Positions 12,658 to 52,560 of a stretch of DNA of 64,000 bases are shown here, piece by piece (the first letter of the stretch is position 1; every line of letters starts with the position of its first letter). Source of the stretch: an uncultured bacterium (GTDB lineage Bacteria > Patescibacteriota > Minisyncoccia > UBA6257 > 2-01-FULL-56-20). The stretch spans positions 623,893-687,892 of the forward strand of contig OY970126.1 in NCBI GenBank assembly GCA_963705915.1, written 5' to 3'. The notes below the pieces were generated by a model. It worked only from the letters and a program-made list of their open reading frames with translations. It was not told where the DNA came from and did no database searches. Both the position numbers and the translations under genes were made by a program.

Positions 12658-12706
12658 CGAACCGGGACTTTTTTATAGGACGGTGTGATAGTAAAACTTA
12701 TTAGCT

Positions 12707-14335: not shown

Positions 14336-14471
14336 GCTAGAGGCACCATATCTCGCAGCTGCGAATCGTCTTTAATCTATACTCATTTGAATATTTTTTC
14401 AACCGCAGCGCATAATCTCGAGCGCAACACCATTTGACCATCCTTCGTATTCTTTATAAAATAATTAAACT

Positions 14472-16690: not shown

Positions 16691-16703
16691 GTATGACATC
16701 CTG

Positions 16704-16775
16704 TGGGCGCGGTAGGATTCGAACCTACAACCGATCGTGTATAAGACGATTGCTCTGCCGTTGAGCTACGCGCCC
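16704..16775 (-). tRNA. tRNA, anticodon UAU by inspection (tRNA-Ile2-like)
   Basis: Reverse complement folds as acceptor GGGCGCG/CGCGCCC, D-arm GCTC-AACGGCA-GAGC, anticodon stem ATCGT/ACGAT with loop CTTATAC, T-arm GTAGG-TTCGAAT-CCTAC, discriminator A. Confidence 0.75.
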
Positions 16776-27735: not shown

Positions 27736-28926
27736 TTATGCCTTCGCAAACGGATTCTGTGCGCCAATCACTTCAAAGTGAACTTGGCAGCCGCTTGCGT
27801 CGCCGGTCTGGCCCATGAGGCCGATCTCTTGGCCTTGATTTACATAGTCTCCAGGCTGAACAAGTACTTGCTCAAGATGTGCATATCGCGTCTCAACGTT
27901 GTTGCCAAATGCATGCTCGATGAGGACAAAATTGCCGTAGCCACCGTTCCAACCTCCCGGCGCGTCGGAGATATTCGGATCGGGGATCACGACGCCAGCC
28001 GCAGCGGCGACAACCGGCGTACCGCACGAGTTCGCAATGTCAACGGCGTTGTTATCGTTAAGAATGCCCCAGTCGTATCCTTTAGCAGGCATAATGAAGT
28101 CGTTATTAAAATTTGGCAACGTGCTGCCGGTTTGTGTGGCGAGGGGATTCGTCGCAACGTCGGTCCCTCCTGGAATCACGATCGGCTGACCGGCAGAGAG
28201 TGTGCTAAAATTTACACCTTGGTTGAATTGCGTTATTTTATCTTGAGGAACTCCAAAAGCGCTCGCAATTGATGACAACGTGTCGCCAGCTTTCGCGCTA
28301 TAGATGACGCCGGACGTTGGGAGAATCTCCAGTGTCTGTCCGACCTGCAAGTTTGCCGCCTTCACGCCGGGGTTTGCGTCGAGAATAGTTTGGACTGAGA
28401 TACCGAAATAGGTAGCGATGCGCGAAAGGTTGTCTCCCGATTGCACCGTGTAGGAGATAAGTCCCGAACGATCGATGGCGGGGCCGATCGGCTGACCAGG
28501 ATCCTGCAGGGCGGCGTTGTCTAACATATCGTCCGAGGGTGTGGTTGCCGGCGATCCATTTTGAGCGTCGCTATTAACGTCCGACGTGAGAAGGGCGAGC
28601 CCCGGATCTTGCAAAGCGCCGGCACCGACGACGGCTGCAGCATCAAGCTCGGCGCCTTGAGCGGTTGGCACAAGTGAATTCGCCGTGGAAGCCGCAGCTT
28701 CGTCTGGGCCACTAAGAACTCCCTTTTCTACCGCGGTTCCGGTCTGAGGAAGATAGACGAAGCGGAATGTTAGGACCACCCCTACCAAAAAAGCGACCAC
28801 GGATAGTGGTTTATATTTACTCTTAAGATTTCCGACGATAATACTAATAGACTTATAGTAGCATAGATGACCCAAAACGATCAAAAAACTCAAAAAAGTG
28901 GCATTTTCCCTATGAATCCAGCCCAA
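27736..28926 (-). CDS. LysM-domain M23-family metallopeptidase (cell-wall hydrolase)
   Basis: N-terminal TM anchor, two LysM motifs (...GDNLSRIATYFGISVQTILDANP..., ...GDTLSSIASAFGV...), C-terminal M23 ...YAHLEQVLVQPGDYVNQGQEIGLMGQTG... Confidence 0.8.
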   Translation of the reverse strand: MGWIHRENATFLSFLIVLGHLCYYKSISIIVGNLKSKYKPLSVVAFLVGVVLTFRFVYLPQTGTAVEKGVLSGPDEAAASTANSLVPTAQGAELDAAAVVGAGALQDPGLALLTSDVNSDAQNGSPATTPSDDMLDNAALQDPGQPIGPAIDRSGLISYTVQSGDNLSRIATYFGISVQTILDANPGVKAANLQVGQTLEILPTSGVIYSAKAGDTLSSIASAFGVPQDKITQFNQGVNFSTLSAGQPIVIPGGTDVATNPLATQTGSTLPNFNNDFIMPAKGYDWGILNDNNAVDIANSCGTPVVAAAAGVVIPDPNISDAPGGWNGGYGNFVLIEHAFGNNVETRYAHLEQVLVQPGDYVNQGQEIGLMGQTGDASGCQVHFEVIGAQNPFAKA

Positions 28927-30855
28927 AAGGAGGCTGCGGAGGCCAAAAATGGGCCACTTTTAATAGTAGCAGGGGCTGGAACCGGTAAAACAAGGACTTT
29001 AACCGGCAGGATCCTCTATTTAATTAACTCGGGGATGGCTCCAGGGCGCATTTTAGCTATCACCTTCACCAATAAAGCCGCCAAGGAAATGGCGAGCAGG
29101 GTTAACGTTCCAGGACCGCTTCTCAGTACATTTCATAGTCTTGGGGCTCGAATCCTCAGAAAAGAGTGTCGGCATCTTGGCAGAACGCCGAACTTTGTGA
29201 TTTTCGATGACCACGATTCTTTTGACTTAATCAAAAAAACGGTGAAAAGTGTTTTGCCGAAGCCGCCGAAAGACGACGAAGGCATGCTCGGGCGGGCGGC
29301 GAGAGAAAAGTTGAACAGAAAAGAATCGCCGGCATTTTTTGCCCAGAAAATTTCTGAGATAAAAAATCGGGATGGGATGCTCGAGGAGCTGAAATCGCCC
29401 GAGGCAAGCGCGCGAGCCGACTTGCGAACGGCAAAAAATATTGTTTCTGTTTTTGAAAAATATGAAGCAGCGCTCGTGCGGAACAACGCGTTTGACTTTG
29501 ATGACCTCATAGAAAAAGTTGTGGAGCTCTTTAAAAAGAATCCGAGCGTACTCGAAAAATATCAATCGATGTTCGACATTGTTCTTGTCGACGAATATCA
29601 AGATATCAATCCAAAACAATGTGAACTCATCACGCTCCTTGCCCAAGGCCATCGCAACCTGAGCGTGGTGGGGGATGACGAGCAAACCATTTACAGCTGG
29701 CGTTATGCTGACATCAAAACATTTTTGGATTTTGACAAACAATGGAAAGGCGCGCAGGTCTATTTTCTCGAAGAAAATTATCGCTCGACGGGAAACATCA
29801 TCCGTGCGGCTGCGGGTGTCGTGAAGAATAATTCATTCCGCACGCCAAAGAATTTATTCACGCAAAATCCCGACGGCGACCGGATCACGCTCTTTGAGGC
29901 GTGGGGCGAGAACGAAGAAGCGGAATGGATCGCACAAGAAATCGGCAAGCGGCGTGGACGAAGCGATGCGGAAGACGCAGCCCGCGCTGGAAATTCAAGT
30001 AAAGGCTCCCAAGAGGAAATAGCCATTTTATATAGGACAAATGCGCAATCCCGGGCGATCGAACAAGGTCTTATTCGCCGCAATATTCCTTATAAAATCT
30101 ATGGTGGATTGAAATTTTATGAACGCCGCGAAGTGAAAGATGCGATCGCCGCATTACGCTATGCATCGAACGACAAAGACGAACTTGCACGTGAACGGCT
30201 CGAAAAAAATCTCACAAAACGAAAGTTTGCGGAGTTTCAATTGAAGCTGCGAGTGCTTGCTGCGAAGAGCGATGGATCAGTGCAAACGATGCGGCCAACC
30301 GATATGCTGAAGCTTTTCCTTGAAACGTTCGACTATATGGCCTATCTCGAAGAAAATTTTATAAATTCCGATGAGCGCGAAGAAAATATTGCCGAGCTCG
30401 TGACGTTCGCGGCCGAGTTCCAATCGTTGCCTGAATTTCTCGAACGCCTGAGCTTGCTGCAATCCACTGATGATGCAAATGCAAATGGAAACGAGAAAAA
30501 GAATCGCGGCAAGGAAGTTTCTATGATGACCATCCACCTTGCCAAGGGCCTGGAGTTCGACACCGTTTTCATCGCGGGCGCAGCGGAAGGCCTGCTGCCG
30601 CATGGGCGGTCGCTCGATGACGAGGCATCGCTCGAAGAAGAACGGCGGTTGATGTATGTTGCAATGACGCGCGCGCGGGAACGGCTCTCGATAAGTTTTT
30701 ACGGGATCCCTTCGCGATTCATCTCAGAAATTCCCGAGGACTGCATCACGTTTGCGGGCGGGGGGGGCGGAACTGGAAATTACAGTGACGGCGCGGACGA
30801 CTCCCTCGACCAAGACGCAGACTCATGGGATGATCCAACCATATCCCTGACGTAA
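28912..30855 (+). CDS. uvrD: ATP-dependent DNA helicase UvrD/PcrA family
   Basis: Motif I AGAGTGKTRTLT and the UvrD-family helicase motifs through the C-terminus; start set at MNPAQKEA so as not to overlap the M23 gene. Confidence 0.9.
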   Translation: MNPAQKEAAEAKNGPLLIVAGAGTGKTRTLTGRILYLINSGMAPGRILAITFTNKAAKEMASRVNVPGPLLSTFHSLGARILRKECRHLGRTPNFVIFDDHDSFDLIKKTVKSVLPKPPKDDEGMLGRAAREKLNRKESPAFFAQKISEIKNRDGMLEELKSPEASARADLRTAKNIVSVFEKYEAALVRNNAFDFDDLIEKVVELFKKNPSVLEKYQSMFDIVLVDEYQDINPKQCELITLLAQGHRNLSVVGDDEQTIYSWRYADIKTFLDFDKQWKGAQVYFLEENYRSTGNIIRAAAGVVKNNSFRTPKNLFTQNPDGDRITLFEAWGENEEAEWIAQEIGKRRGRSDAEDAARAGNSSKGSQEEIAILYRTNAQSRAIEQGLIRRNIPYKIYGGLKFYERREVKDAIAALRYASNDKDELARERLEKNLTKRKFAEFQLKLRVLAAKSDGSVQTMRPTDMLKLFLETFDYMAYLEENFINSDEREENIAELVTFAAEFQSLPEFLERLSLLQSTDDANANGNEKKNRGKEVSMMTIHLAKGLEFDTVFIAGAAEGLLPHGRSLDDEASLEEERRLMYVAMTRARERLSISFYGIPSRFISEIPEDCITFAGGGGGTGNYSDGADDSLDQDADSWDDPTISLT

Positions 30856-30856: not shown

Positions 30857-31648
30857 ATGCCTAAACTTGGACAACATTTCTTAAAAAATAAATCTTCCCT
30901 CGAGAAGATTGTCGCATCGCTTGAACTTACCAATGGAGACTTTGTGGTTGAGGTTGGTCCAGGACACGGCGAACTCACTGAACTATTCCTCGCCAATCTA
31001 TCAGCCGATAAAGAAATCGAGATAGTTGCCATTGAAAAGGACCCGATGCTCGCGAACGCGCTCCGCAAAAAATTCGACACCGCTCGCAATCTGGAAATAA
31101 TAGAAGGCGACGTCCTCAAAATTTTGAAGCCGCTCACAGAAAATGTGCGATTTCTAGACAAAAAATGGAAATTGGCCGGTAATATTCCTTATTACATCAC
31201 CGGGAAGCTCCTCCGTGTTGTTGGGGAACTGGAGAAGAAACCGGAGCGATCGACAGTGATGGTCCAACGGGAGGTTGCCGATCGGATTTGCTCCGCCCCA
31301 CCGAACATGAATCGTCTTGCGGCAAGCGTGCAGTTTTGGTCTTCGGCTACCATAGTCGCGCAGGTTCGGAGGGAGCATTTTTCCCCGGCGCCAAACGTTG
31401 ATTCCGCTGTTGTTTTGCTCAAGACGAGGATGGGGGAACTCAATATTGAACCGAGACGATATTATAAGGCTGTTCAAGCACTTTTCTCTCAGCCGCGAAA
31501 AACCATTCTGAATAACTTGGCCGATGGGGCGAAAATCGATAAGGAGGAAGCTCAGAATGGGCTTAAAAAGCTAATTATTGCCCCGTCTGCAAGGCCGCAA
31601 AACCTCAGTATTGAGCAAATAGAAAAAGTTGCTGAGTTGTTTTTCTAA
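30857..31648 (+). CDS. rsmA: 16S rRNA (adenine1518/1519-N6)-dimethyltransferase RsmA/KsgA
   Basis: LGQHFL...VVEVGPGHGELT... signature. Confidence 0.9.
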   Translation: MPKLGQHFLKNKSSLEKIVASLELTNGDFVVEVGPGHGELTELFLANLSADKEIEIVAIEKDPMLANALRKKFDTARNLEIIEGDVLKILKPLTENVRFLDKKWKLAGNIPYYITGKLLRVVGELEKKPERSTVMVQREVADRICSAPPNMNRLAASVQFWSSATIVAQVRREHFSPAPNVDSAVVLLKTRMGELNIEPRRYYKAVQALFSQPRKTILNNLADGAKIDKEEAQNGLKKLIIAPSARPQNLSIEQIEKVAELFF

Positions 31649-31734: not shown

Positions 31735-33837
31735 ATGATCGATGTCAAGAAATTGATCACCGGTTTTCTGATTTTGGCTGCGTCGGCAGGCTTATCTGCG
31801 ATTGTCGTGACAAACATCAACACGCAACCGGCTACCCAAATTTCATCAAGCACGCCGGCGATTGCTATCAGCCAAACTTCAACGGCGCAAAGCAACGTCT
31901 TTATACCCGAATCTCCAATAACCGACTCCGTCACCCCCGTCATTCAAACCGAAGGTACGATTCCTACGTCCTCAGACCCAAATAATCTTACCGACAATCT
32001 TGCAAATTCATTTTTGAATAGTGTTGTAAGCGCGAACCCGAACGGCCCCCAAGAAGATGCGTCGGGGAATCCCGTTTTCGTTCAACCCGATGTAAATTCA
32101 ATCGCAATGGAAGTCGCGGATGCGACCGCGACCCAAGCTCTTCAAATTCCCAACTGGGATACGGAGGTCAACAACGAGCCACTCCACACCATTCAGAATC
32201 CCACCGCCGAAGATATGACGGATTATGAAAATAACGTTAACTATATCCTCGGAGAGTACGTAGTGAAGCCAAATCTACAGCAGACCATCAATAATCCCGC
32301 AGCAAGCGTGGACGATCTTGCTTCCGTAGAAAATAATCTATCGGGAGCGCTCACGGATCTTACCGCGATCAACACCCCGGCATCTCTCGTCCCTCTTCAA
32401 AAAAGCATGATCGCAATGCTTGTTTATGAAAGCAATGAAGTTCAGGTTGCCGAAGGGGCGAGCGGCGATCCGCTGAAAGCATCCCTCATAATCCAAGGGG
32501 AACAAGAAAAATACGATGCTGCAGCCCAGGCTCTGGAATCACAGATTGAACAAGTCTCAGCGGCCAATGCACCAAGCAACAGCATCGCCATGAACGCACC
32601 TCTCGGATTTCTCCAGGGCATGTTCGGCATCCAAACCGCCCATGCCCAATTCGGAGGAACAGTATTCGTTGCGGGCGGTTATATAGCAACCGATGATCCT
32701 GGCCTTTTCGCTCAAGGGGTTGAAAATCTCGTAAACAACATCATTTTGCAAATCCTTAAAAACGTCCTCATTGCCCTCATACAACAACATGTCCTCTCAT
32801 GGATCCAGGGCAGCGGCGCGCCCCGATTCCTTACTGATTGGGCGACAACGCTCACTCAAGCATATACACAAACCGCCCTCAATATATTGAGCAGCCAAAT
32901 GTCGTGCGCGGTCGGGCCGGAATTCATGGCCCAGGTTCGGACGACCCTTAGTGTCTACTATCAAACGCCCGGCACGAGCGGTAATGTTTGTGCGGATATT
33001 TTCCAAGAATCGCTCGGCGGCAATACGCTTGGGCAGTTTTATAATAATTTTTCGAACGGTGGATGGATGGCATACGGCGTAACGGCACTTCCGGCAGGAA
33101 ATTATTACCAAAGTGCTTTCTTCCAAGCGCAGGCAACCGATCTCGCCGCTCAACAAAATCAACAGGCGACGCAAGCACAATCCATCGCCAGCCAGGGGTT
33201 TACCGGAGATTTGGTCTGCGATGACGGAAGCCAGCCGAACGGAACTCACCTCGAATGTATCGACAAAAATAATGTCCCCTACCATCCGAATTCGAATGGA
33301 ACATGCGACCCTGGATATTTTCCCGTCACCGTGGCGAATAATGGAAAATGCGCAGACGGTACAAACCCGCAAACCGTCACCCCGGGAGCGGCCACGGGCT
33401 TTAGTTTGAACTCCGCCCTCAATTCACCTCAACAGTTAATTACAGCCGCAAATAGCATCCAGGGAATCTTAAACGCGATGGTTACATCACTCCTTAATTC
33501 GCTCGTGAGTGCTGCGGTGAACGCAGGAACCAATGGGCTCTTGGGTATCAGCCCAGGAAGCATCCAAGGTGGTGGTACTCCACCTGCTCCGCTCCCGCTC
33601 ACCTGCAATCCCCCGCTCCAATCTGCGTCAACGACATATCCGATTACGATCAGTGCAAGCGGCGGGAAGACGGATTCTCAAGGCAATCAGCCAAGCTACA
33701 GCTGGTCTTCTTCTGACGGTTTCAATACAACTGGCTATGTATTCTCCCACGCTTATAACCTTGCTGGCACCTACACTATAACCTTGAGCGATAATACCGG
33801 CGACACACCCGCAACGTGCCGAGCGACCGTACAATGA
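31735..33837 (+). CDS. Large secreted Q/N/S/T-rich protein with a C-terminal PKD-like domain; first gene of the T4SS-like operon
   Basis: N-terminal TM/signal sequence, long low-complexity region, C-terminal ...YSWSSSDGFNTTGYVFSHAYNLAGTYTITLS... (PKD-like); a 2-nt gap to the next gene. Confidence 0.55.
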   Translation: MIDVKKLITGFLILAASAGLSAIVVTNINTQPATQISSSTPAIAISQTSTAQSNVFIPESPITDSVTPVIQTEGTIPTSSDPNNLTDNLANSFLNSVVSANPNGPQEDASGNPVFVQPDVNSIAMEVADATATQALQIPNWDTEVNNEPLHTIQNPTAEDMTDYENNVNYILGEYVVKPNLQQTINNPAASVDDLASVENNLSGALTDLTAINTPASLVPLQKSMIAMLVYESNEVQVAEGASGDPLKASLIIQGEQEKYDAAAQALESQIEQVSAANAPSNSIAMNAPLGFLQGMFGIQTAHAQFGGTVFVAGGYIATDDPGLFAQGVENLVNNIILQILKNVLIALIQQHVLSWIQGSGAPRFLTDWATTLTQAYTQTALNILSSQMSCAVGPEFMAQVRTTLSVYYQTPGTSGNVCADIFQESLGGNTLGQFYNNFSNGGWMAYGVTALPAGNYYQSAFFQAQATDLAAQQNQQATQAQSIASQGFTGDLVCDDGSQPNGTHLECIDKNNVPYHPNSNGTCDPGYFPVTVANNGKCADGTNPQTVTPGAATGFSLNSALNSPQQLITAANSIQGILNAMVTSLLNSLVSAAVNAGTNGLLGISPGSIQGGGTPPAPLPLTCNPPLQSASTTYPITISASGGKTDSQGNQPSYSWSSSDGFNTTGYVFSHAYNLAGTYTITLSDNTGDTPATCRATVQ

Positions 33838-33838
33838 T

Positions 33839-36202
33839 ATGAAATGGCTATCGCCTAAAAAAATTTTGGGTTTTGCCCTCGCTGGGATGTTCCTTACGGT
33901 GCTTGGATTTACGTTGAGTACTGGCGTTGCACATGCGGCAGGTGGATCGATACCAGACCTTCTGAGTTGCGGCGCAAATGCTTTCACTTGTGCCGTCTAC
34001 GGAATCAGCTTTGTCGTCAATGCTATCCTAGGACTTTTCATCAGCCTTGGAGCTTACATCATCACCTTCGCGCTGAATCTCGATGGCAATGTGTTCAATT
34101 CTCCCACCGTACAAACTGGATTCTCAATCGCGCTTTCGGTAGCAAATCTTGGATTTGTGCTCGGCATAATTGTTATCGCTATCGCAACAATCCTTCGAAG
34201 CGAAGCCTATGGCGTCAAACAAATGCTTTGGAAGCTAGTTGTGATGGCCATCCTTGTGAACTTTGGGCTTGTGATTACAGCTCCCATTGTTGGGTTTGCC
34301 GACAACTTGAGCAACTACTTTGTTAACGCCGAAGGCGGCACAATAAGTTTCGCCACAAATCTCACAAACGCTTTTGCGCCGCAAAATCTTATGCAACCGC
34401 CTCCTGCAGCGACAGGAGGCCAAACGGCTTGCAACGTTGCCGGCGGACTCCTTGGCGGACCTGTCGGAGCTGCCCTCTGCAATACCGCTCGCCAATATTT
34501 AAATGGCGACACCTCTGGCGCAAGCGCGTTTATGGTCCAGGTGCTTTCGCTCATTTTCTCGGCGGTATTTTCGTTTATAGTCATGATCACATTTTTCGCA
34601 ATCGGAATTATGCTTTTTATTAGATACATTTATCTAGCCCTCCTTTTAGTCCTTCTGCCACTCGCATGGCTCACCTGGGTTCTACCTAAACTCAGCCATC
34701 ATTTTGAACGATGGCTGAGCGAGTTTTTCAAATGGACGTTCTTTCCTGTTATTTCGCTGTTCTTCATTTATATTGCCTTCCAGTCGGTGACCAACATAAA
34801 CGGGGCGGTCGGTTTGCAAGCGGCATCAATCGCATCGAGCAACCCAAACGGTCCGCTCGCAAGCATGGCAACACAGACCGGCGGTAACGTGAACCTCATC
34901 CAAACTGCTCTCGATGAATTGCTCATGGCGGGTCTTTGCCTCGGCGGACTCTTTGCAGCAAATGCAATGTCTATTAAAGGAGCGGATACGGCGATGAGTA
35001 TCGTGAAGGGTGCTGGGAAAGGTGTGAAGAATTGGACAACGAGACAGACTAAGAAAGCTGGGCGGGCTACGTATCAAAGATTAGGAGGCAATACGTTGAA
35101 CAAAAAGATGCAGGCTGCCAGAGTGCCTATCATACCAACAATCGGCAGGCAGTTTGCAAGCTGGACCGAGGCTGGAGGAAAAGATCTCGTAGGCAAGCGA
35201 GCAGCCGATCTGAAATTGAGCGGCATGAGCGACGAACGTCTTGTTGAAGTTACGAAGGGCCTCCGAGAGAAGCCTGATCAATTTGCAGCTCTGGCTGAAT
35301 GGCAGAAGCGCAACAAACTTTACAAAGTTGAGCAAATCGGCGGCACTGATCTTAATACATTCCTCGATAAAAACGAGTCATTGGCAAAGAGCGGCTACGA
35401 CCAAGGCAAGCTTATGAGTGATATTAATAAAAACTTTGGCAACGACGCCGACGGAAGAAGGATCAGCAGGGCACGTGCGGCTGAGATGGAAAAAGTTGAC
35501 GTCGTTGATTCACGGGGAATCGTTGCCGCTCCGGGAACAAAAGTTAGCGCCGCCGATCTTGCTGGTGGCGCAAAGGTTGTAATAGAAAATGCAAAAGAGG
35601 CCATAAAAGAATTTGGCCTCGACACCACGGTCAATCATAACGGTAGGATTGTTCGCGCAGACACGCTGATCGAAGACGCGCATAAATCTATCGCCGACGC
35701 TGACGACGCCGCCGACAAGGTTGAAGTGAAAGACGAAAAGGGACTGCTTGGTCCCGCTGGGAAAATGCAAAGAGCCGGAGAGCTGCTTCAGGCCGCATCA
35801 GATAAATTTGTTAAAGGATTGGATAAGGGAGATTTTGCAAAAACTCACCCAGACTATCTTTTTGAAGGAGAAGGAAAATTCGGTTTGGATGAAAATACTG
35901 TACGCGGCTTGGGACGAGCATTCGCTCAATCCATCGTTTCAACCAATCCTTTGCTTATCAGCTCGGCCGTTGGAAAGCTTGACAAAGAGGATGAAATAAA
36001 ATCATTTATGCGTGAGATTACAAAGGCCATCGATAATGCTGTAGCTACCAATCACTTAACTAAGAAGGATGCCAATAGACTACAAAACCAATATCTTGGT
36101 AGAAGTATCGAGAAGAGGATTTCCAATATCGCAACCGGCGGAGGTGGAGGTGGCGCAGCTCCCGCAGCTCCATCCGGTGGCGGAGGTGGTGGTGGACATT
36201 AA
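33839..36202 (+). CDS. Polytopic inner-membrane protein, VirB6/TrbL-like T4SS channel-component candidate, with a long cytoplasmic tail
   Basis: Signal sequence, at least six TM helices in the first 330 aa, then a charged domain ending in Gly runs; operon context with PrgI and VirB4. Confidence 0.5.
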   Translation: MKWLSPKKILGFALAGMFLTVLGFTLSTGVAHAAGGSIPDLLSCGANAFTCAVYGISFVVNAILGLFISLGAYIITFALNLDGNVFNSPTVQTGFSIALSVANLGFVLGIIVIAIATILRSEAYGVKQMLWKLVVMAILVNFGLVITAPIVGFADNLSNYFVNAEGGTISFATNLTNAFAPQNLMQPPPAATGGQTACNVAGGLLGGPVGAALCNTARQYLNGDTSGASAFMVQVLSLIFSAVFSFIVMITFFAIGIMLFIRYIYLALLLVLLPLAWLTWVLPKLSHHFERWLSEFFKWTFFPVISLFFIYIAFQSVTNINGAVGLQAASIASSNPNGPLASMATQTGGNVNLIQTALDELLMAGLCLGGLFAANAMSIKGADTAMSIVKGAGKGVKNWTTRQTKKAGRATYQRLGGNTLNKKMQAARVPIIPTIGRQFASWTEAGGKDLVGKRAADLKLSGMSDERLVEVTKGLREKPDQFAALAEWQKRNKLYKVEQIGGTDLNTFLDKNESLAKSGYDQGKLMSDINKNFGNDADGRRISRARAAEMEKVDVVDSRGIVAAPGTKVSAADLAGGAKVVIENAKEAIKEFGLDTTVNHNGRIVRADTLIEDAHKSIADADDAADKVEVKDEKGLLGPAGKMQRAGELLQAASDKFVKGLDKGDFAKTHPDYLFEGEGKFGLDENTVRGLGRAFAQSIVSTNPLLISSAVGKLDKEDEIKSFMREITKAIDNAVATNHLTKKDANRLQNQYLGRSIEKRISNIATGGGGGGAAPAAPSGGGGGGGH

Positions 36203-36211
36203 TAAATATAC

Positions 36212-37279
36212 ATGCTCACTCTTTCAGATCAACAAGTTTTCAGTCGTTGGCCTTCCTTAAGCCCGGCACTTCGAGAAGCGCTCTTTTCGCAACCGAACGC
36301 TGATTTCGTTTGGAATTTATGCACCGACGAACACCTACCCGAAGAAAAACGATATGACGTGGCAGAAATTTCCGGATATGTGCTTATGGGCTTTCTCCAC
36401 CCAGAAGATCTGGCGGGGGAACTGGCTGCAACACTTGCTCTTGATCCAAAAATAACAAAAACTATCGCCGACGAAATCAACAAAAGAATTTTTGTCCCGC
36501 TCCGAGCCGATATCGATAAGGTTTACGAACCCGTGAGCAAACTCGCGCCATCCCCGATGCCGATCCGGGACATTAGCTCCGGCCAGGCACAAGCTATGAC
36601 ACCCAAACCTGTCCCGCTCTCGCCTGCGCCCTCAGCGCCGTCTTCCTTCACGAAAATTCCGCCGGCTTCCGAAGGAAAATTCGCGCCGATGAGCGGCGCG
36701 CCGTGGCCCACAAAGCCTGCGCCTGAACCATCAAAGATTGCACCCGGGAACTGGACCACGCAAAAGTCCGCGGTTGTAACACCTGCTGCATCATCATCGG
36801 ATCCGGCCCCGATCATGCTTCATGAAGATGCTAAATTTTCTGCAAGCGATAAAAATACCGACTTCCATCTTTCGCGGCCGGGAGGAGGCGCAGAAGTTTC
36901 GCTTGAAGGCGTGAAGCCAGAAAAAGCAGTGAAACCTGCGGTGCTCGAGCTCGGGACGCTCACAAACACTCCTGCCGCACAAAATGTAGGACCGAAGTTC
37001 ACACACTACACACAGTTCTCGTCGTCTCCCACGCCGAACTCGGAAGCGTCAGCGGTGTCGGCAAACACAGCCCCGAGAAACGTCACGGAGGTTACGGGCG
37101 CGCCGAATGTTACAGCGGCCCCCGTCGTGAGACCGGAGTCGACGCCGATCAAACCGATGTCGTCATCGAAACCGCCCGTCGCTCAAACGCCAATCCCGCA
37201 ACCGCCAAAACCGCCAGCACCAAAGCCAGTCCAAGCGCCACGGCCCGGGCAACCGCCGATTCAGAAAAATTATCCATAA
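36212..37279 (+). CDS. Proline-rich hypothetical protein of the T4SS-like operon
   Basis: The C-terminal half is a P/A/S/T-rich linker; no TM segment. Confidence 0.45.
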   Translation: MLTLSDQQVFSRWPSLSPALREALFSQPNADFVWNLCTDEHLPEEKRYDVAEISGYVLMGFLHPEDLAGELAATLALDPKITKTIADEINKRIFVPLRADIDKVYEPVSKLAPSPMPIRDISSGQAQAMTPKPVPLSPAPSAPSSFTKIPPASEGKFAPMSGAPWPTKPAPEPSKIAPGNWTTQKSAVVTPAASSSDPAPIMLHEDAKFSASDKNTDFHLSRPGGGAEVSLEGVKPEKAVKPAVLELGTLTNTPAAQNVGPKFTHYTQFSSSPTPNSEASAVSANTAPRNVTEVTGAPNVTAAPVVRPESTPIKPMSSSKPPVAQTPIPQPPKPPAPKPVQAPRPGQPPIQKNYP

Positions 37280-37296
37280 TATAATAGAGCAAACCA

Positions 37297-37854
37297 ATGC
37301 AGTTCCAAGTTCCACAATTTATCGAGACTGAAGACAAAGTGGTGGGCCCGTTCTCGATCCGCCAGTTTGCCTATGTTGGCATTGCCTGCTTCATAAGTGC
37401 CATCGCATATTTTATGCTTGCGACATGGCTATTCTTTCTTGTCGCAATCATTTTTATCGGCGGTGCGCTCGCCATATCGTTTGTAAAGGTTGAGGGCCGC
37501 CCCCTCATTAATATTCTTATTTCCGCAGCCAATTTTTATTGGAAACCGCAAACCTACGTCTGGCAACCGGAGCAGACAGCAATTGCCGCGCCCGGCAAGA
37601 TCAAAAGTGAAGCAAAATCGGGCGGTTTTTCGCTTGAAGATATCCTCGCAAACGCTCTCCGGAAAAAATCGGTTGATACGGCAAAAGTTGCCGATGGCAA
37701 CGCTCTCCATAAAAGCTGGCAAAATGTGCAAACGGGGGAGACCCAAAAAACCTCTGACCGGCAATTCATCGAACGCAAGATGAATGAGCGCTATCAGATT
37801 TTCCAGAAGCTTGCGGGCGACCGGGACGCTGCGCGGCGGGTGGACTATCGATAG
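37297..37854 (+). CDS. PrgI-family protein (VirB3-like component of Gram-positive-type T4SS)
   Basis: MQFQVPQFIETEDKVVGPFSIRQFAYVGIACFISAIAYFML... matches the PrgI N-terminal pattern with two TM helices. Confidence 0.6.
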   Translation: MQFQVPQFIETEDKVVGPFSIRQFAYVGIACFISAIAYFMLATWLFFLVAIIFIGGALAISFVKVEGRPLINILISAANFYWKPQTYVWQPEQTAIAAPGKIKSEAKSGGFSLEDILANALRKKSVDTAKVADGNALHKSWQNVQTGETQKTSDRQFIERKMNERYQIFQKLAGDRDAARRVDYR

Positions 37855-37872
37855 TTGGATTATCGATACTAA

Positions 37873-38592
37873 TTGTGGGAAAATAATACCATGGCGCTTC
37901 CTGCAAAGCAGGATCTGGGCAATTCGCTCGATCTTGTAGACATAAAAGAGATTCGCGACAACGTCGCCATTCTCAAAGACAATAGCTTACGACAAGTCGT
38001 TATGGTCGGTGGGGTGAATTTTGCGTTGAAATCGGACACCGAGCAGAACATCATCACGCAAGGCTATCAGACATTTTTAAACACCGTCGAATTTCCGCTT
38101 CAGATTCTCATCCATTCGCGCAAAGTAAACATCGACAAATATATAGAGAGCCTTTTGCGCCGGAAAGAAGTGGAAACATCGCCGATCCTCCAGAACCAAA
38201 TTGACGAATACACCGAGTTCGTAAAAGGGTTCGTGTCTAAAAATGCGATTATGGAAAAAACATTTCTCATTGTCGTGCCTTTTTTCCCGTTGGGCGCGGC
38301 GATGTCGGGGGCGAAAAAGGGATTGATGGATAGCATTCCGTTTTTGGGTAACAGGAAAAAGCCCGACGCCGCGGCAACGGCAAAATCAAAAGAAGAAGCC
38401 GACCACTCATTTAATGAAAATGTTGGCCAGCTCACCCAGCGCACAAGCCAGATTGTGAACGGCATTTTGGGCGTAGGCCTCGAAGCCACCGTGCTCGGCA
38501 ACCAGGAACTCATCGAGCTTTTCTATAATTTTTATAACCCGCAAACCGTTGAGCGGGGGACGAACCTTGGAGCGGGGACTGATACCGCATGA
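37873..38592 (+). CDS. VirB4/TrbE-family protein, N-terminal domain, encoded as a separate ORF
   Basis: ...QVVMVGGVNFALKSDTEQNIITQGYQTFLNTVEFPLQILIHSRKVN... resembles the VirB4 N-terminal domain; in the same frame as the downstream ATPase ORF, separated by TGA and TAA stops. Confidence 0.55.
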   Translation: MWENNTMALPAKQDLGNSLDLVDIKEIRDNVAILKDNSLRQVVMVGGVNFALKSDTEQNIITQGYQTFLNTVEFPLQILIHSRKVNIDKYIESLLRRKEVETSPILQNQIDEYTEFVKGFVSKNAIMEKTFLIVVPFFPLGAAMSGAKKGLMDSIPFLGNRKKPDAAATAKSKEEADHSFNENVGQLTQRTSQIVNGILGVGLEATVLGNQELIELFYNFYNPQTVERGTNLGAGTDTA

Positions 38593-38616
38593 TTTCATTA
38601 ACCTTTCATTAAAACG

Positions 38617-40353
38617 ATGCCCGACCAAACCCCACAAAACTTCAAAGATATCAAAAAGATCATCGCACCGGCAGGCGTGCAGATCTCGCCGAATTTTTTG
38701 AAGATCGGCGACAAGCTCGCAAAAACGTTTTTTGTTTTTTCATATCCCCGCTACCTCGCGACGGGTTGGTTCGAACCGCTCATCAACCTGCCGAATCTTT
38801 TTGATATTTCCATTTATGTGAACCCGATAGACACGGGCGTCGCGCTCAAAAACCTCCGCAAGAAAGCCGGCCAGCTCGAATCCCAAATAGCCGACGAACA
38901 GGAAAAGGGGCTCGTGCGAAATCCCGTGCTTGAAACCGCCGTGCAAGACGTTGAAAATCTCCGCGACTCACTCCAGCAGTCGGAAGAAAAACTTTTCGAT
39001 ACCGGCGTATACATTACGATCTACGGCGACAACGAAGACGACCTCGCAAAGCTTGAAAGTAAACTCGTGAGCATGATGGAGGCGAAGCTCATCTATCTCA
39101 AACCCGCGCTCTTCAATCAGCTCGAAGGGCTATTCACCGTGCTCCCGCTCGATGCCGATAAATTGCAGGTGTATACGCCAATGAACACGGGCCCGATTTC
39201 ATCCTTCTTCCCGTTTGTTTCGGAAGATCTCTCTTCTAATGAGGGAATCATGTACGGTATTAATTTGCACAATAATAATCTTGTGATCTTCGATCGATTC
39301 TCGCTTGAGAATGCAAACCAAGTCGTCTTTGCAAAATCCGGCTCGGGAAAGTCATATACAACAAAGCTCGAAATCATCCGATCTCTCATGGCGGGTGTCG
39401 ACATGGTGCTCGTGATCGATCCGGAAAACGAATACGACCGGCTTGCAAAAACCTTTGGCGGCAGCATGTTCAATATCTCGCTCTCGGGGCACGAACACAT
39501 CAATCCGTTCGATTTGCCGCTCGTGCCGGAAGGGGAAACACCGTCGGATGTTTTGCGGTCGCACATCGTGACGCTCGCAAGTTTGCTCAAGCTCATGCTC
39601 GGCAAGATCACGCCGGAAGAAGACGCCTTGCTTGATCGCGCAATCACCGAGACCTATGCGTCGCGGGATATCGTGGCCGGCACAGACTTCGCCGGAAAAG
39701 AACCGCCGCTTTTGGGCGACCTCGAAACGGTCCTCCGCGATATAGAAGGAGGAAAAGATTTGGCCGAAAAGCTCTATAAATACACCAAGGGCAGCTTTGC
39801 GGGGTTCTTGAACCAGCCAACAAACATCGATATCAGTAACCGGCTCATCGTGTTTTCAATCCGCGACCTCGAAGAAGAATTGCGCCCGGTCGGCATGTTC
39901 GTTGTTTTGAATTTCATCTGGTCGCTCATCCGCGCGAAGCTCGCGAAGCGATTGCTCTTCATCGATGAAGCCTGGATCATGATGAAAAACGAAGACAGCG
40001 CGACGTTCCTCTTCGGCCTCGTGAAACGCGCGCGCAAATATTATCTCGGCGTATCGACGATCACCCAAGACGTTGAAGATTTCTTGCGATCGCCCTATGG
40101 CCGCCCAATCATCACAAACTCGTCGATCCAATTACTTTTGAAACAGGCGCCGGCAACAATTGATATCGTGGCAAAGGCATTCGATCTCACGGAAGCCGAG
40201 AAAAGTTTTCTCCTGGGCGCGGAAGTCGGCACCGGTATCTTCTTTGCTGGCAAACGACACGTTGCAATTCAAATCGTGCCGTCATACTTTGAAGATCAGA
40301 TCATCACAACGAATCCCGAACAGCTTCTCGAGGAGAAAGATCAGGTTTTGTAG
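38617..40353 (+). CDS. VirB4/TrbE/PrgJ-family T4SS ATPase (C-terminal ATPase portion)
   Basis: Walker A FAKSGSGKSYTT, Walker B LLFIDEAWIMM, VirB4 C-terminal motifs ...GVSTITQDVEDF..., ...GIFFAGKRHVAIQIV... Confidence 0.85.
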   Translation: MPDQTPQNFKDIKKIIAPAGVQISPNFLKIGDKLAKTFFVFSYPRYLATGWFEPLINLPNLFDISIYVNPIDTGVALKNLRKKAGQLESQIADEQEKGLVRNPVLETAVQDVENLRDSLQQSEEKLFDTGVYITIYGDNEDDLAKLESKLVSMMEAKLIYLKPALFNQLEGLFTVLPLDADKLQVYTPMNTGPISSFFPFVSEDLSSNEGIMYGINLHNNNLVIFDRFSLENANQVVFAKSGSGKSYTTKLEIIRSLMAGVDMVLVIDPENEYDRLAKTFGGSMFNISLSGHEHINPFDLPLVPEGETPSDVLRSHIVTLASLLKLMLGKITPEEDALLDRAITETYASRDIVAGTDFAGKEPPLLGDLETVLRDIEGGKDLAEKLYKYTKGSFAGFLNQPTNIDISNRLIVFSIRDLEEELRPVGMFVVLNFIWSLIRAKLAKRLLFIDEAWIMMKNEDSATFLFGLVKRARKYYLGVSTITQDVEDFLRSPYGRPIITNSSIQLLLKQAPATIDIVAKAFDLTEAEKSFLLGAEVGTGIFFAGKRHVAIQIVPSYFEDQIITTNPEQLLEEKDQVL

Positions 40354-40362
40354 CGCACTACG

Positions 40363-41235
40363 ATGAATGCGAAACGATTCAGCACTGCAGAAGAAGTAGT
40401 CGCCGCACTTCTCGTCCTTTCAGAAGTTGCGGTGAAAGCCATCGCCGACCTTTCTCTTGGCATACCCGTCATCGGAGAAATCGGCTTTGCCGGTGCAGAA
40501 CTTTACACCGTTGCGATCTACGCCGTCTTTATTCTTTGGTTCGTCTTTAAGCTTGGCGGCTTTGGAACCGTCGGCATGTATCTCACCGTTGGCGGCCTTG
40601 CCGACGCGATAGGCATCCCTGTTGGCCTTGCCTTCGCTGTTGGCGCAGGCATGTATTTGACGAACCATCCAAAAGTAAAAGCTGTGGCCGGGGTTGTTGG
40701 AGGATTTGAAGGGGGCGCGGAAGCGGGGGCAGCCGAAGCTGGCGAAGCCGCGGAGGGTGTGACTGAGGTAGAAGAGGCCGCAACGGCGGCGGAGGGAACA
40801 GCGCAAGGAGCTGAGGCAGCCCAAGGCGCCGAAGGGGTTGAGGCTGGAACGGAAACTGGAAAAGCCGGCGCAGGTACGTCCGCCGAAGAAGCCGGGGCAC
40901 AGGAAGCTGGAGCTGAAACCAATGAGTCCGAGAAGACCGAAGGCGAGCGTAAAGCCGAAGAGGAGCTCACGCCGGAAGCCGAGAAAAACCCGATGGACAT
41001 TGAGCAGAAAAATCTTTTTCAAGAAACACCGGAATCTGAGTTTGAAGGCAAGGAGAGCGGCACTGAGGCAGGCGACGAGAACGGTTCCGCCCAAGACAAG
41101 CCGCTTAACAAAGAGCAAAAGTTCGGGCAGAAGGTGCAAGACATCACTTCCGGACGCGGTCAGAACCTTAAAGATTATCAAGCAGACGAAGACAAGGAAG
41201 ATTTCGGCGACGAAGAATCCGAGAAGGCCGCGTAG
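40363..41235 (+). CDS. Membrane protein with an acidic low-complexity C-terminal tail (T4SS operon)
   Basis: Three to four TM helices, then a Gly/Ala/Glu-rich tail. Confidence 0.5.
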   Translation: MNAKRFSTAEEVVAALLVLSEVAVKAIADLSLGIPVIGEIGFAGAELYTVAIYAVFILWFVFKLGGFGTVGMYLTVGGLADAIGIPVGLAFAVGAGMYLTNHPKVKAVAGVVGGFEGGAEAGAAEAGEAAEGVTEVEEAATAAEGTAQGAEAAQGAEGVEAGTETGKAGAGTSAEEAGAQEAGAETNESEKTEGERKAEEELTPEAEKNPMDIEQKNLFQETPESEFEGKESGTEAGDENGSAQDKPLNKEQKFGQKVQDITSGRGQNLKDYQADEDKEDFGDEESEKAA

Positions 41236-41268
41236 CGTCGTTCCGTTTGCTACAATAATAAAGAGTAT

Positions 41269-41958
41269 ATGGCGAACCGAACCGCAAAGACCGCACTCGG
41301 CATAATGGCCGTGCTTTTCATACTTGGCATCGCCCGGGCCAATGCTGCAGGTCCTCAATTTTTGATCACGTGGAAAACCACGGGAAGTTATATTCCGTCG
41401 AATTACGCCGGGAAAATGTTGCCGACCTATGGATCGGAGATAACCGCATCGCTTGAGATATTTTCCGGCGGCTCTTCGGTCAACTTGGCGAACCAAACCA
41501 TCTATTGGTATTTAAACGACACGCTTCTCGGCGGTGGCGTGGGTGCTCGAACGATTACATTCCCGCCCTTTGGCCAAGCGCCAAACGATATGACACTCAA
41601 AGTTGAGTTGCCAAGTTACGACGGACAATTTCTCATCCATACCATCACCATCCCGATGGCTCAGCCACAGGTTGTAATCGTTGCACCCTATCCCGGCGGA
41701 GCTTTTTCATTAAACCCAGTCACCGTGACGGCTGTGCCTTATTTTTTCAACACAGCGTCACAGGATAATCTTTCGTATTCGTGGACGGTAAACGGCCAAA
41801 CAAGTGCAAACGAAGAGGATCCTGAAGAAGCACAGATTACGCTCCCGGGAGGAACGGCAGCCGGAACGTCGTTCGGTGTTGACGTGACGGTACAAAATCC
41901 GAGCGATTCAACGCAGGCGACGGCGTCAGAAAATCTCACCTACCAGCCACCACTTTAA
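41269..41958 (+). CDS. Secreted hypothetical protein (signal peptide) of the T4SS operon
   Basis: N-terminal signal sequence MANRTAKTALGIMAVLFILGIARANA. Confidence 0.5.
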   Translation: MANRTAKTALGIMAVLFILGIARANAAGPQFLITWKTTGSYIPSNYAGKMLPTYGSEITASLEIFSGGSSVNLANQTIYWYLNDTLLGGGVGARTITFPPFGQAPNDMTLKVELPSYDGQFLIHTITIPMAQPQVVIVAPYPGGAFSLNPVTVTAVPYFFNTASQDNLSYSWTVNGQTSANEEDPEEAQITLPGGTAAGTSFGVDVTVQNPSDSTQATASENLTYQPPL

Positions 41959-41974
41959 CTATGTTCCATTTCTC

Positions 41975-42451
41975 ATGAGCAAATCCATTGTAAAAAAAGT
42001 TGCTTTTATCTTTATTGCGAGCCTCGCTCTCTCGTTTGTTTCTGTGACGCACGCGGTGAACATTTCGCTTTCGTTTCCCGGCGTAAATTATTCAACGAGC
42101 ACGCCGCCCGGAACGATTGTAAATGGCTTCTATCAGTTTGCGCTCCTTATCGGAGGAATCCTTGCGTTCGGCGCCATCGTCTATGGAGGCGTGAGATATA
42201 TGACCTCGGCAGGTAATCCTTCGGGGCAGCACGAAGCGAAGGAGTGGATTCTGAGTGCACTCATCGGCATCATACTTCTCGTCGGCGCGTACCTCATCTT
42301 GAATACTGTGAATCCAAATCTAACGCACCTCGATCTGCCAACACTCCAGCCCGTAAATATTAGTAACAACGGTTATACCGGCAACGGGGGCTCGAATGGG
42401 CAAGGTACGAGCGGATCGGGCTCAAATGGCGGCGGTGGCAGCGCCTTCTAA
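41975..42451 (+). CDS. T4SS pilin-like protein (TrbC/VirB2-family candidate)
   Basis: Signal peptide plus two hydrophobic helices with a G/A-rich pattern (...GFYQFALLIGGILAFGAIVYGGVRYMTSAG...AKEWILSALIGIILLVGAYLIL...), then a Gly/Ser-rich tail. Confidence 0.45.
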   Translation: MSKSIVKKVAFIFIASLALSFVSVTHAVNISLSFPGVNYSTSTPPGTIVNGFYQFALLIGGILAFGAIVYGGVRYMTSAGNPSGQHEAKEWILSALIGIILLVGAYLILNTVNPNLTHLDLPTLQPVNISNNGYTGNGGSNGQGTSGSGSNGGGGSAF

Positions 42452-42455
42452 ATCT

Positions 42456-43784
42456 ATGAAACGCTATATAACCATAATTGCCGTAGTGATCATTGTAGCC
42501 GTCCTTGTGGTGGTCGGCCTCTATATTTGGAAGCAATACGGATCGTCGGGAGCGTCGGGCACCACCTCGAGCGGAACCGCCGGCACGTTGCCGAACGCTG
42601 GAACGCAAGGAACGAGTGGCAGCAGCACAAGCGGGACAACGGGAACAACCGGCGCGACTGGCGGCAACACGGGTTCAAGCTCGAGTGGCAGTACCGGCCT
42701 TGTTGCGGGCACCTTCGGGCCGCTCTCAAATGATCCTGTCCTCAATTATTTTGTGGAGCCGAATAATACCGTGCTTGCCCTTGAGCCGAATGGCGTTGTT
42801 GCACAGATCTCCGCAGGCCAAACTTCTTACCTCAGTTCGTCAACGGCGAGTAACGTGATCAGGGGCTCATTCTCGCTTGACGGTAAATTGGCGCTCATAA
42901 ACTTTGGTGCCGCGGGCACCGCGCCACAAACGAGTATCTTTGCTGTCGCTTCTTCAAAATGGACGGCGCTTCCGCAGGGCATGCAATCGCCCGTCTGGTC
43001 GCCGGTGCCTGGCGACGAACGCATTGCGTACCTTGCAAACGCAGCGACGGGGACGGAAACGCTCGCGACGATCAACGCGGCGAATCCAAAGGCTGGCCCG
43101 GTTGGTCTGCTTACCCTCCACGCGAACGATCTCACCGTGCAGTGGATCGGCAAAACACAGTTTATCCTCTCGAGTAAGCCGAGCGACTACGCCCCTGGTT
43201 CGATGTTCCTGTTCAATAGCGCGGCACAAGCCCTCACACTGCTCGACATCGACCTGCCAGGGCTCGAAAGCGTCTGGAGCGGTCCCTTTGGCACAAGCTC
43301 ACCCGAAGGACTCGTATTCTCCACTAATATTGGCTCGACGGGCGGCAATCTGCAATTTCAAGACTTGAGCGGAAATATTCTTGAGAATGTGGCCTTGGGA
43401 ACATTGCCGACGAAATGCACCTTCGGCACGGGAACGTCAATCGTAACAGCTTCGCCTTCGAACGGCACGTCGACCGCAAGTACGTCGACCGTCGGCGCAC
43501 CAGGCACAACGACAACCACGAGCTATCTTGCCCTCTACTGCGGCGTCCCGCGCGACCAAAACGCATTTTCGTCAGCATACTTACCCGACGATTACAACCA
43601 AATGGCGCTCTTCACCTCCGACGATATTTATCAAATCAACGCCGAGAACGGATCAGTGAATGTCCTTTGGGATGATGCGAGTCAAAACATGGACGTGAGC
43701 AATCTCACGGTTGTGAGCAGCTCGATCTTCTTCGTCAATCGTTACGATCAGAAATTATACACGCTCTCAATCAGCGCAAACTAA
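42456..43784 (+). CDS. Membrane-anchored protein with an S/T/G-rich linker and a beta-propeller-like extracytoplasmic domain (last gene of the T4SS operon)
   Basis: Start set at MKRYITIIAVVIIVAV (TM helix); the C-terminal region has TolB/PD40-like repeats (...SPVWSPVPGDERIAYL...). Confidence 0.5.
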   Translation: MKRYITIIAVVIIVAVLVVVGLYIWKQYGSSGASGTTSSGTAGTLPNAGTQGTSGSSTSGTTGTTGATGGNTGSSSSGSTGLVAGTFGPLSNDPVLNYFVEPNNTVLALEPNGVVAQISAGQTSYLSSSTASNVIRGSFSLDGKLALINFGAAGTAPQTSIFAVASSKWTALPQGMQSPVWSPVPGDERIAYLANAATGTETLATINAANPKAGPVGLLTLHANDLTVQWIGKTQFILSSKPSDYAPGSMFLFNSAAQALTLLDIDLPGLESVWSGPFGTSSPEGLVFSTNIGSTGGNLQFQDLSGNILENVALGTLPTKCTFGTGTSIVTASPSNGTSTASTSTVGAPGTTTTTSYLALYCGVPRDQNAFSSAYLPDDYNQMALFTSDDIYQINAENGSVNVLWDDASQNMDVSNLTVVSSSIFFVNRYDQKLYTLSISAN

Positions 43785-43810
43785 AAAAGAGTCTTCGCTC
43801 TTTTTTATTC

Positions 43811-52074: not shown

Positions 52075-52560
52075 TCAATTGCCTGCAGATGTGGATAACC
52101 TATCGTTCGCCGCCATAATCGCGAGGGCAAGGGCGTCGCTTGCGTCGTCGATCACTTTCAAGTCCGGTTTTTTCAGGATGAAACGCACCATTTTGAGTAC
52201 GGCCTTTTTGTCAGCGCTGCCATAGCCTGTCACGCCGCTCTTTACCTCGTTCGGCGCATATTCGCGAATCCGGAGACCTTGTTCTTCTGCGGTAAGGAGA
52301 ATGACGCCCCGCGCCTGCGCAACGGCAAGCGCCGTTTTCTGGTTTTTTGCGAAGAATAACTTTTCAACCGCAATCACATCGGGCTTATGTTTGGCGATGA
52401 GCTTATCGAGCGACTGCTTGATTTCAAGGAGTGCGCCCGGTTCGTCGGTTCTCGTGATAGACATGATGCCCGCCTCAACAAAAATCGCCTCGTGCGCCTC
52501 TTGGAGGATGACGCCATAGCCAACCCGCCGGGTTCCGGGATCAATGCCGAGAGCGATCAT
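52075..52560 (-). CDS. ruvC: Crossover junction endodeoxyribonuclease RuvC
   Basis: MIALGIDPGTRRVGYGVI... RNase H-fold resolvase with conserved acidic residues. Confidence 0.9.
   Translation of the reverse strand: MIALGIDPGTRRVGYGVILQEAHEAIFVEAGIMSITRTDEPGALLEIKQSLDKLIAKHKPDVIAVEKLFFAKNQKTALAVAQARGVILLTAEEQGLRIREYAPNEVKSGVTGYGSADKKAVLKMVRFILKKPDLKVIDDASDALALAIMAANDRLSTSAGN

Follow-up and report, generated by a model that had tools for sequence, protein, structure and literature searches.

A ten-gene locus beside the replication origin as a probable complete Paceibacteria example of the Patescibacteria-type chromosomal type IV secretion system

The type IV secretion systems (T4SSs) carried on the chromosomes of Patescibacteria have been described in two recent studies. 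Wang et al. (2023, Cell, PMC10633639) reported an essential T4SS beside dnaA in Southlakia epibionticum, a pilin-bearing system that resembles the conjugation systems of Gram-positive bacteria and is devoid of coupling protein and relaxase. Its genes encode, in this order, a VirB6-like protein, PrgI, an unannotated protein of 293 aa, VirB4 and, further along, an exported immunoglobulin (Ig)-like protein; its essentiality was deduced in the same work from transposon sequencing. A survey of the phylum (Quinonero-Coronel et al. 2025, Microb Genom, PMC12102498) recognized the 293-aa protein as a TrsD homologue, placed the VirB4 proteins in a Patescibacteria clade beside MPF_FATA, found TrsD, PrgI/VirB3, VirB6 and VirB2-like pilins near virB4 with relaxases nearly absent, and located the Paceibacteria cluster close to dnaA, dnaN, ksgA, rnpA and rpmH. 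These systems also count among the recognized T4SS types in a 2025 review. The present work concerns a stretch of 64 kb (contig OY970126.1, called the window below) of an 827-kb genome, in which positions 31735-43784 are filled by ten co-oriented open reading frames (ORFs), g1 to g10. This cluster is, with a probability of about 0.85, a Patescibacteria-type chromosomal T4SS that descends from monoderm (MPF_FATA) conjugation machinery and is vertically inherited next to oriC in a Paceibacteria/Parcubacteria genome. The system being already known, the locus, in which pilin and VirB6 each occur once, is a clean and complete Paceibacteria representative and not a discovery. The additions made here are incremental, namely support for the VirB6 fold, the identification of a TrsD-like protein (g5), a beta-propeller (g10), a modular family of surface proteins (g1) and a contrast in conservation between VirB4 and DnaA.

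The ten genes lie on the + strand and are separated, from g1 to g10, by 1, 9, 17, 18, 24, 9, 33, 16 and 4 nt once the start of the last gene is corrected as explained below; 86 nt precede g1. The cluster follows uvrD/pcrA and rsmA/ksgA and faces, on the opposite strand, jag (R3H), yidC, rnpA and rpmH, beyond which come dnaA and dnaN. An earlier inspection of the letters and ORFs, made with no database search (the sequence-only reading), had proposed a tightly packed single-strand operon of ten genes located in the chromosomal core near rsmA and the origin, and both statements hold. When the hidden Markov models (HMMs) of all ten proteins were run on the window, no paralog was detected; the pilin gene, in particular, has no second copy there. 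The set formed by VirB4, TrsD, PrgI/VirB3, VirB6 and a VirB2-like pilin, the lack of a relaxase and the chromosomal neighborhood are those of the surveyed Patescibacteria T4SSs (PMC12102498), from which no essential difference was found. The system of Southlakia epibionticum ML1 (SEML1_0005-0019) is likewise close to dnaA, has the same core order and pilins of family PF18895, lacks a relaxase and a coupling protein in the cluster, and its VirB6-like proteins end in large helical-repeat (ARM-like) domains as g2 does. It differs in its VirB6-like genes, of which it has two against one in the window cluster, and in its pilins, which number six in tandem against one. Essential lysozyme/CHAP and DD-peptidase proteins are also encoded there, along with a protein that is NTF2-like (VirB8-like); the window cluster, with no recognizable hydrolase or NTF2 protein, contains g1, g3, g7 and g10 instead.

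The distribution of the locus was studied by a scan of one genome per species, which returned 119 relatives of the VirB4 protein g6. The best 80 of these 119 were kept, and all come from Paceibacteria, Parcubacteria or 'Saccharibacteria'-labelled metagenome-assembled genomes (MAGs), closed chromosomes of ~0.9 Mb included. The synteny check that the sequence-only reading had called for showed that the order uvrD-rsmA-g1...g10-jag-yidC-rnpA-dnaA-dnaN recurs, flanks included, in dozens of species-level Paceibacteria/Parcubacteria genomes. Where VirB4 is only 55-58% identical, the order g2-g3-g4-g5-g6-g8-g9-g10 can still be detected with profile HMMs. The proteins of the locus evolve at very unequal rates (Table 1). 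VirB4 is more conserved than DnaA in each of the 24 complete loci, and also more than DnaN, UvrD and YidC; the choice of loci by VirB4 similarity inflates the contrast with DnaA somewhat, too little to explain it. An extremely constrained motor combined with fast-evolving envelope and surface parts fits a core host-facing machine, and it is not the pattern expected from a mobile or decaying element. This conservation and the recurrent synteny with the flanking genes indicate therefore a vertically inherited core machine and not a mobile element. Indeed, no mobile-element context surrounds the cluster, whose synteny is conserved and whose G+C content (0.49-0.54) equals that of the flanks, and neither an integrase nor a relaxase or coupling protein is adjacent to it. 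A Pfam scan covering the other window ORFs of >=250 aa and most of those of 145-250 aa found housekeeping genes only, with no relaxase, VirD4, VirB11 or lytic hydrolase (no oriT search was made), in agreement with the absence of VirD4, relaxase, VirB1 and VirB11 announced by the sequence-only reading. The housekeeping T4SS-like machine, as opposed to a conjugative element, that this reading had put forward is thus upheld by the synteny, the G+C content, the lack of adjacent mobility genes, the monoderm kinship of VirB4 and the published descriptions; the function that it had suggested, DNA uptake or interaction with a host cell, is a guess.

Table 1. Genes of the cluster, compared flanking genes and downstream hairpin. 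Median identity is that of the window protein to its counterparts in the 24 loci that possess all main genes (g7, uvrD and rnpA not being required). TM, transmembrane.
Feature	Coordinates	Strand	Description	Basis	Median identity (%)
uvrD/pcrA	28867-30855		5' flank		61
rsmA/ksgA	30857-31648		5' flank		
g1	31735-33837	+	700 aa, predicted surface-exposed or secreted	model, PF18911	29
g2	33839-36202	+	787 aa, extended VirB6-like protein	TrbL_4 sub-threshold; structure	33
g3	36212-37279	+	355 aa, Pro-rich, no TM segment	conserved ~105-aa N-terminal domain, then Pro-rich tail	34
g4	37297-37854	+	185 aa, PrgI/VirB3-like, two TM helices	PF12666 PrgI	52
g5	37873-38592	+	239 aa, TrsD-like, separately encoded VirB4 N-terminal domain	NCBIfam profiles	58
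g6	38617-40353	+	578 aa, VirB4 ATPase body, CD1110 / MPF_FATA type	NF045971, P-loop_TraG	85
g7	40363-41235	+	290 aa, small membrane protein, 2-3 TM segments, long acidic Ala/Gly/Glu-rich tail	composition	
g8	41269-41958	+	229 aa, exported, signal peptide	sub-threshold BiPBP_C, PKD	41
g9	41975-42451	+	158 aa, VirB2-like T4SS pilin	PF18895	50
g10	42456-43784	+	442 aa, N-terminal TM anchor, Ser/Thr/Gly-rich linker, TolB/PD40-like beta-propeller	ortholog profile	37
hairpin	43785-43807	.	AT-rich, AAAAGAG-TCTTCG-CTCTTTT then T-run	between convergent g10 and jag; read from sequence	
dnaA	45707-47056		3' flank		70
dnaN			3' flank		60

The VirB4 ATPase, the PrgI-family protein and the pilin named by the sequence-only reading were all confirmed by family profiles. 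The motor g6 scores 391.7 bits against the CD1110 family of NCBIfam (NF045971, cut-off 325), of which it covers profile positions 182-734, and 88.4 bits against the Pfam P-loop_TraG family. Its Walker A (AKSGSGKS) and Walker B (LLFIDE) motifs are intact; among 78 orthologs, the former is kept in all and the latter in 77. Upstream of it, g5 (start codon TTG, with an alternative ATG at 37891) matches TrsD (E 2.9e-7), positions 103-219 of the VirB4_plasma profile (E 1.5e-8) and positions 19-180 of TIGR00929, all these scores being below the curated whole-protein cut-offs. This was the one protein left unnamed in the initial list of ten, the nine other names having been given there. It adjoins g6 in 77 of the 80 loci, and on the VirB4 profiles the two proteins are colinear with a full VirB4, g5 covering the first ~200 positions and g6 those from ~182 on; VirB4 is therefore split as in the TrsD/TrsE pair of plasmid pGO1. 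A natural fusion confirms the identity of g5 as the N-terminal domain of VirB4, since in a Liptonbacteria MAG (L034, 9077-11698) the counterparts of g5 and g6 form a single ORF of 873 aa. The protein g4 reaches 37.5 bits against PF12666 (cut-off 27) and has a homologue in 72 of the 80 loci.

The pilin g9 displays a signal peptide (..VTHA-V), two TM helices and a tail rich in Gly, Ser and Asn. It scores 47.7 bits against the T4SS_pilin family PF18895 (cut-off 26.6) and 16 bits against TrbC, and it matches weakly, in NCBIfam, pilin-like proteins of a Mycoplasma integrative and conjugative element (ICE) and of pLS20; BLASTP found no significant similarity with TrwL of R388. In four more distant relatives (L074, L076, L077 and L078; for instance L077, 12530-14032), the ORF recognized by the pilin HMM is ~500 aa long instead of the usual ~160 aa, which points to a long extension attached to the pilin domain. 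In the VirB6-like protein g2, a signal/TM segment is followed by a polytopic membrane domain (~40-390), and the C-terminal part (~400-770) is a large domain of helical repeats. Its earlier assignment as VirB6-like stands on the side of structure and falls short on that of sequence, with 20.3 bits against TrbL_4 for a cut-off of 27. Comparison of its ortholog profile with TrwI/VirB6 of R388 by hhalign was not significant, and a sequence-profile search of the PDB gave nothing useful. The predicted structure nevertheless supports a polytopic protein of VirB6 fold.

The monoderm ancestry is apparent from the comparison with the MPF_FATA T4SSs (CTn2/CD1110 type, pCF10, pIP501 and pGO1), which share a VirB4 of the CD1110 family and a prgI gene located immediately upstream of virB4; pGO1 also shares the split between TrsD and VirB4. 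The closest plasmid-borne VirB4s to g6 are of this monoderm CD1110 type (29-36% identity). A related VirB4 is found on the Clostridium perfringens plasmid pSXP-169_2, where MobC, relaxase, VirD4, PrgI, a full-length VirB4 and an SLT hydrolase are encoded in a row; unlike this plasmid, the window cluster has no MobC, relaxase, VirD4 or SLT, has a VirB2-like pilin in addition and occupies a fixed place in the chromosome. Sequence identity with the MPF_T system of R388 is negligible, and the window cluster has neither an outer-membrane core (VirB7/9/10) nor VirB11 or VirD4.

Several points weigh against this interpretation. Components resembling VirB8 and VirB1 are usual in monoderm T4SSs, and none was recognized in the cluster by the family scans or, for g8, by hhalign; Pfam and NCBIfam gave no match to SLT, CHAP, lysozyme or VirB8 families among the ten proteins (the structures of g3, g7, g8 and g10 were not predicted). 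The VirB6 assignment of g2 is below threshold by sequence, the putative pilus is deduced from the pilin gene alone, and the roles given to g1, g3, g7, g8 and g10 are guesses drawn from domain content and position. The absence of relaxase and VirD4 applies to the 64-kb window, and a distant copy in the rest of the genome is possible; in many Patescibacteria, VirD4-like genes do occur far from virB4 (PMC12102498). Lastly, essentiality was established in one Saccharibacterium only, and it is from strong conservation that a need of the T4SS for host-dependent growth may be suggested here.

A plausible mechanism can be drawn from the R388 module VirB2/3/4/6, in which VirB4, VirB3 and VirB6 extract the VirB2 pilin from the membrane and polymerize it on a VirB6 platform. 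The same module is represented in the window by g5/g6, g4, g2 and g9. Hexamers of VirB4 (g5/g6) would dock on g4 and g2 and drive the assembly of a g9 pilus, or of a short conduit, through the thin monoderm wall. The fast-evolving extracellular part meeting the host cell would be made of g1 with its variable C-terminal binding module, of the Ig-like g8 and of the anchored beta-propeller g10, while g3 and g7 may be clade-specific accessory parts. Most likely, the machine serves an epibiont for contact with its host and for the transfer of macromolecules between the two cells. As no relaxase or coupling protein lies alongside the cluster, it is therefore not taken for a conjugative DNA exporter, and conjugative export by this cluster is unlikely. 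As for the direction of transport, import of host material is proposed tentatively, at somewhat less than even odds; export of proteins or effectors is still more tentative, and a role limited to adhesion or to the pilus itself is doubtful. The matter exceeds this single locus. Apart from the T4SSs of Patescibacteria, none is currently known to be essential to its own carrier, and the question of what these systems transport matters for understanding how a quarter of bacterial diversity subsists at the expense of other cells. The five proteins g1, g3, g7, g8 and g10, recorded here as conserved clade-specific members of the locus, form a defined list of partners from which structural or co-culture studies could start when a member of the Paceibacteria has been brought into culture with its host.

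More specific alternatives have to be considered for the cargo. ComB of Helicobacter pylori and the archaeal Ced system take up DNA by means of VirB2/3/4/6-type parts, with neither coupling protein nor relaxase. The cluster could be a monoderm analogue of these machines, dedicated to DNA import and providing a source of nucleotides to an organism unable to make them. It indeed possesses VirB2/3/4/6-type parts, with no VirD4, relaxase or VirB11 in the scanned window ORFs; comM and the recombination genes ruvABC are present in the window, and uptake of DNA or other macromolecules was proposed in the 2025 survey (PMC12102498). The match of g6 to the NCBIfam CedB profile (E 4e-9) goes in the same direction, but its 35.6 bits compare with a cut-off of 700 and reflect the shared P-loop only. 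Beyond being chromosomal T4SS-derived machines free of relaxase and coupling protein, the two models differ from the window cluster, ComB being a diderm system with VirB7-10 and Ced having different membrane parts; the similarity detected is generic and limited to the P-loop. Moreover, no protein of the cluster is predicted to bind DNA. In Southlakia, deletion of comEC abolishes transformation and not viability, whereas the T4SS is essential (PMC12102498 and the 2025 review); its essential role there is therefore not ComEC-coupled transformation. A machine dedicated to DNA import is accordingly held to be improbable. A protein exporter independent of a coupling protein, comparable to Bordetella Ptl or Brucella VirB and delivering effectors or toxins to the host bacterium, inside it or on its surface, deserves slightly more credit and is nonetheless unlikely. 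Protein-exporting T4SSs of this kind exist (PMC12102498 and the 2025 review), this function was suggested as an alternative by Wang et al. (PMC10633639), and fast-evolving surface proteins such as g1 and g10 would fit an arms race at the host interface; against it, the flanks are purely housekeeping, and neither the cluster nor its immediate surroundings show candidate effectors, chaperones or toxin-immunity pairs.

The possibility of a decayed, non-functional ICE that lost its relaxase and coupling protein must also be weighed. The VirB4, PrgI and TrsD parts do derive from monoderm conjugation systems, and an island with a serine recombinase lies 17 kb upstream. All ten ORFs are nevertheless intact, and the strong conservation of VirB4 relative to DnaA and of its Walker motifs, given above, is not that of a remnant. 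The placement between rsmA and jag is identical in dozens of species, the G+C content does not depart from that of the flanks, and the recombinase island is set apart from the cluster by ftsH, tyrS, clpP, ppa, nusA, comM and uvrD. The conservation and synteny data thus effectively refute this hypothesis, which was rejected as barely conceivable.

Among the clade-specific members, g1 is the largest, and its median identity is the lowest in Table 1. Its predicted model (pLDDT, the predicted local distance difference test score, of 73.7) shows, after an N-terminal TM helix and a disordered linker, a helical domain modelled with confidence (80-280), a second, central domain that is helical and Cys-rich (~290-610; 322-600 in the model) and a C-terminal PKD domain (620-700). 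The latter scores 32.4 bits against PF18911 (cut-off 27), as expected for the PKD-tailed protein announced at the outset. Structure searches returned PKD/Ig matches only, with no solved structural relative outside the PKD domain. The central domain opens at a relic signal-peptide site (..TAHA-Q), followed in most relatives by the motif xVFDP. In two loci (L067, 3268-5582, and L069, 4063-6216), the g1 homologue consists of two genes split exactly at this internal signal-peptide-like site, the second gene beginning with a normal signal peptide (..KAHA-QYVVIDP in L069); g1 of the window is therefore a fusion of two modules. The same site and the following xVFDP motif are matched by DUF4141 (PF13605) in eleven g1 relatives, with 22.4-29.5 bits for a cut-off of 30 (E 5e-7 to 8e-5), the window g1 giving no match. 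In the conjugative transposons of Bacteroidetes, genes for DUF4141 proteins belong to the tra operons and neighbor traG and traJ (PMC10434189).

The central domain of g1 belongs to a large family, for which an exhaustive HMM search collected 1542 clusters (50% identity level); a word-indexed search for homologues from the alignment of this domain had yielded only nine short fragments. Divergent members of the family bear other C-terminal modules, discoidin-like or weakly GH5-like, all of them below cut-off. Such exchangeable C-termini would fit a surface-binding protein, and g1 is a candidate adhesin or pilus-associated protein. Membership of the VirB5/TrbJ family (PF07996) was rejected, as PF07996 gave no match and hhalign against TrwJ a probability of 0.2%. 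No bridge from the central domain to VirB5 was found either, the best 150 HMM matches being all relatives of the same architecture. It is conceivable, if rather doubtful, that g1 is a functional counterpart of VirB5, that is a secreted protein of the pilus tip or stalk with exchangeable C-terminal modules, to which a membrane-anchored helical domain is joined in most Paceibacteria. With g8 and g10, it would then constitute an extracellular assembly, so far undescribed, that takes the place of VirB8 and VirB1 and sets which host cell the pilus engages. Should this be true, the assembly would be the host-range determinant of Paceibacteria.

The exported protein g8 is present in 67 loci. Its sub-threshold matches to BiPBP_C (23.1 bits) and PKD suggest that it is probably made of two beta-sandwich (Ig-like) domains; no PDB sequence match was obtained. 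The Ig-like SEML1_0005 of Southlakia, also exported, is comparable in position. A role of g8 as VirB8 was rejected after an hhalign comparison with TrwG/VirB8 (probability 0.2%). The ortholog profile of g10 matches TolB chains in the PDB (E 1.7e-7), and the scattered weak Pfam matches of its orthologs concern nearly all of them beta-propeller families. Its start most likely lies at 42456 (MKRYITII...) and not where the ORF opens (42396), because the ortholog consensus begins at the former position (MKRxxYII); g10 therefore does not overlap the pilin gene.

The composition of g3 (16% Pro) bears out the Pro-rich protein foreseen by the sequence-only reading; its tail is probably disordered and the protein presumably cytoplasmic. 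No match to g3 was found in Pfam or NCBIfam, nor in the PDB with its ortholog profile, even if its position is conserved in 51 loci. The case of g7 is similar, with no family match in Pfam or NCBIfam and a sequence that evolves fast at a conserved position: in ~50 loci, the longest ORF between the virB4 and g8 genes combines TM-like hydrophobic N-terminal segments with an acidic tail. The estimate that half of the components lack a recognizable family is thus partly right. It holds for g3 and g7, which have no relative outside the clade, and not for g5 (TrsD/VirB4 N-terminal domain), g10 (beta-propeller) or g2 (VirB6 fold).

Regarding expression signals, a TATAAT hexamer ends 8 nt before the ATG of g1, and the hairpin that follows g10 is a possible bidirectional terminator closing the operon. 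Promoter and terminator scans performed no better than on shuffled sequence, this hairpin not being scored by the terminator scan, and Rfam detected no RNA family within the cluster.

Some neighboring features of the window can be mentioned. Its sole other secretion ATPase (53159-54844, +), a T2SSE protein of the PilB type that bears an MshEN domain, belongs to type IV pili and is not a VirB11; it lies ~10 kb downstream of the T4SS together with an unrelated neighbor, a lamin-tail-domain protein (56084-56671, +). The same origin-proximal region contains comM (26103-27662, +) and ruvC, ruvB and ruvA (52075-52560, -; 55037-56056, +; 62508-63107, +). Competence and recombination genes near virB4 have been noted in another class, ABY1 (PMC12102498). 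The recombinase island mentioned above corresponds to positions 8000-14400, where the G+C content is ~0.41 for ~0.50 elsewhere, and looks like a small integrated element free of conjugation genes. It comprises two ORFs with no family match (7433-8233, -, and 8315-9352, -), a protein with RNase H and Top1 zinc-ribbon domains (9514-10287, -), a tRNA_anti-like protein and a large serine recombinase (12707-14335) whose 3' end overlaps tRNA-His (14275-14346, -). A LOOT RNA (Rfam RF03000; 10350-10473, +) is also located in this island, with 49.8 bits for a gathering score of 46.4. In most bacteria, the AUA codon is read by a lysidine-modified CAU tRNA; the window encodes a tRNA-Ile with anticodon UAU (16703-16775, -), a minority decoding solution.

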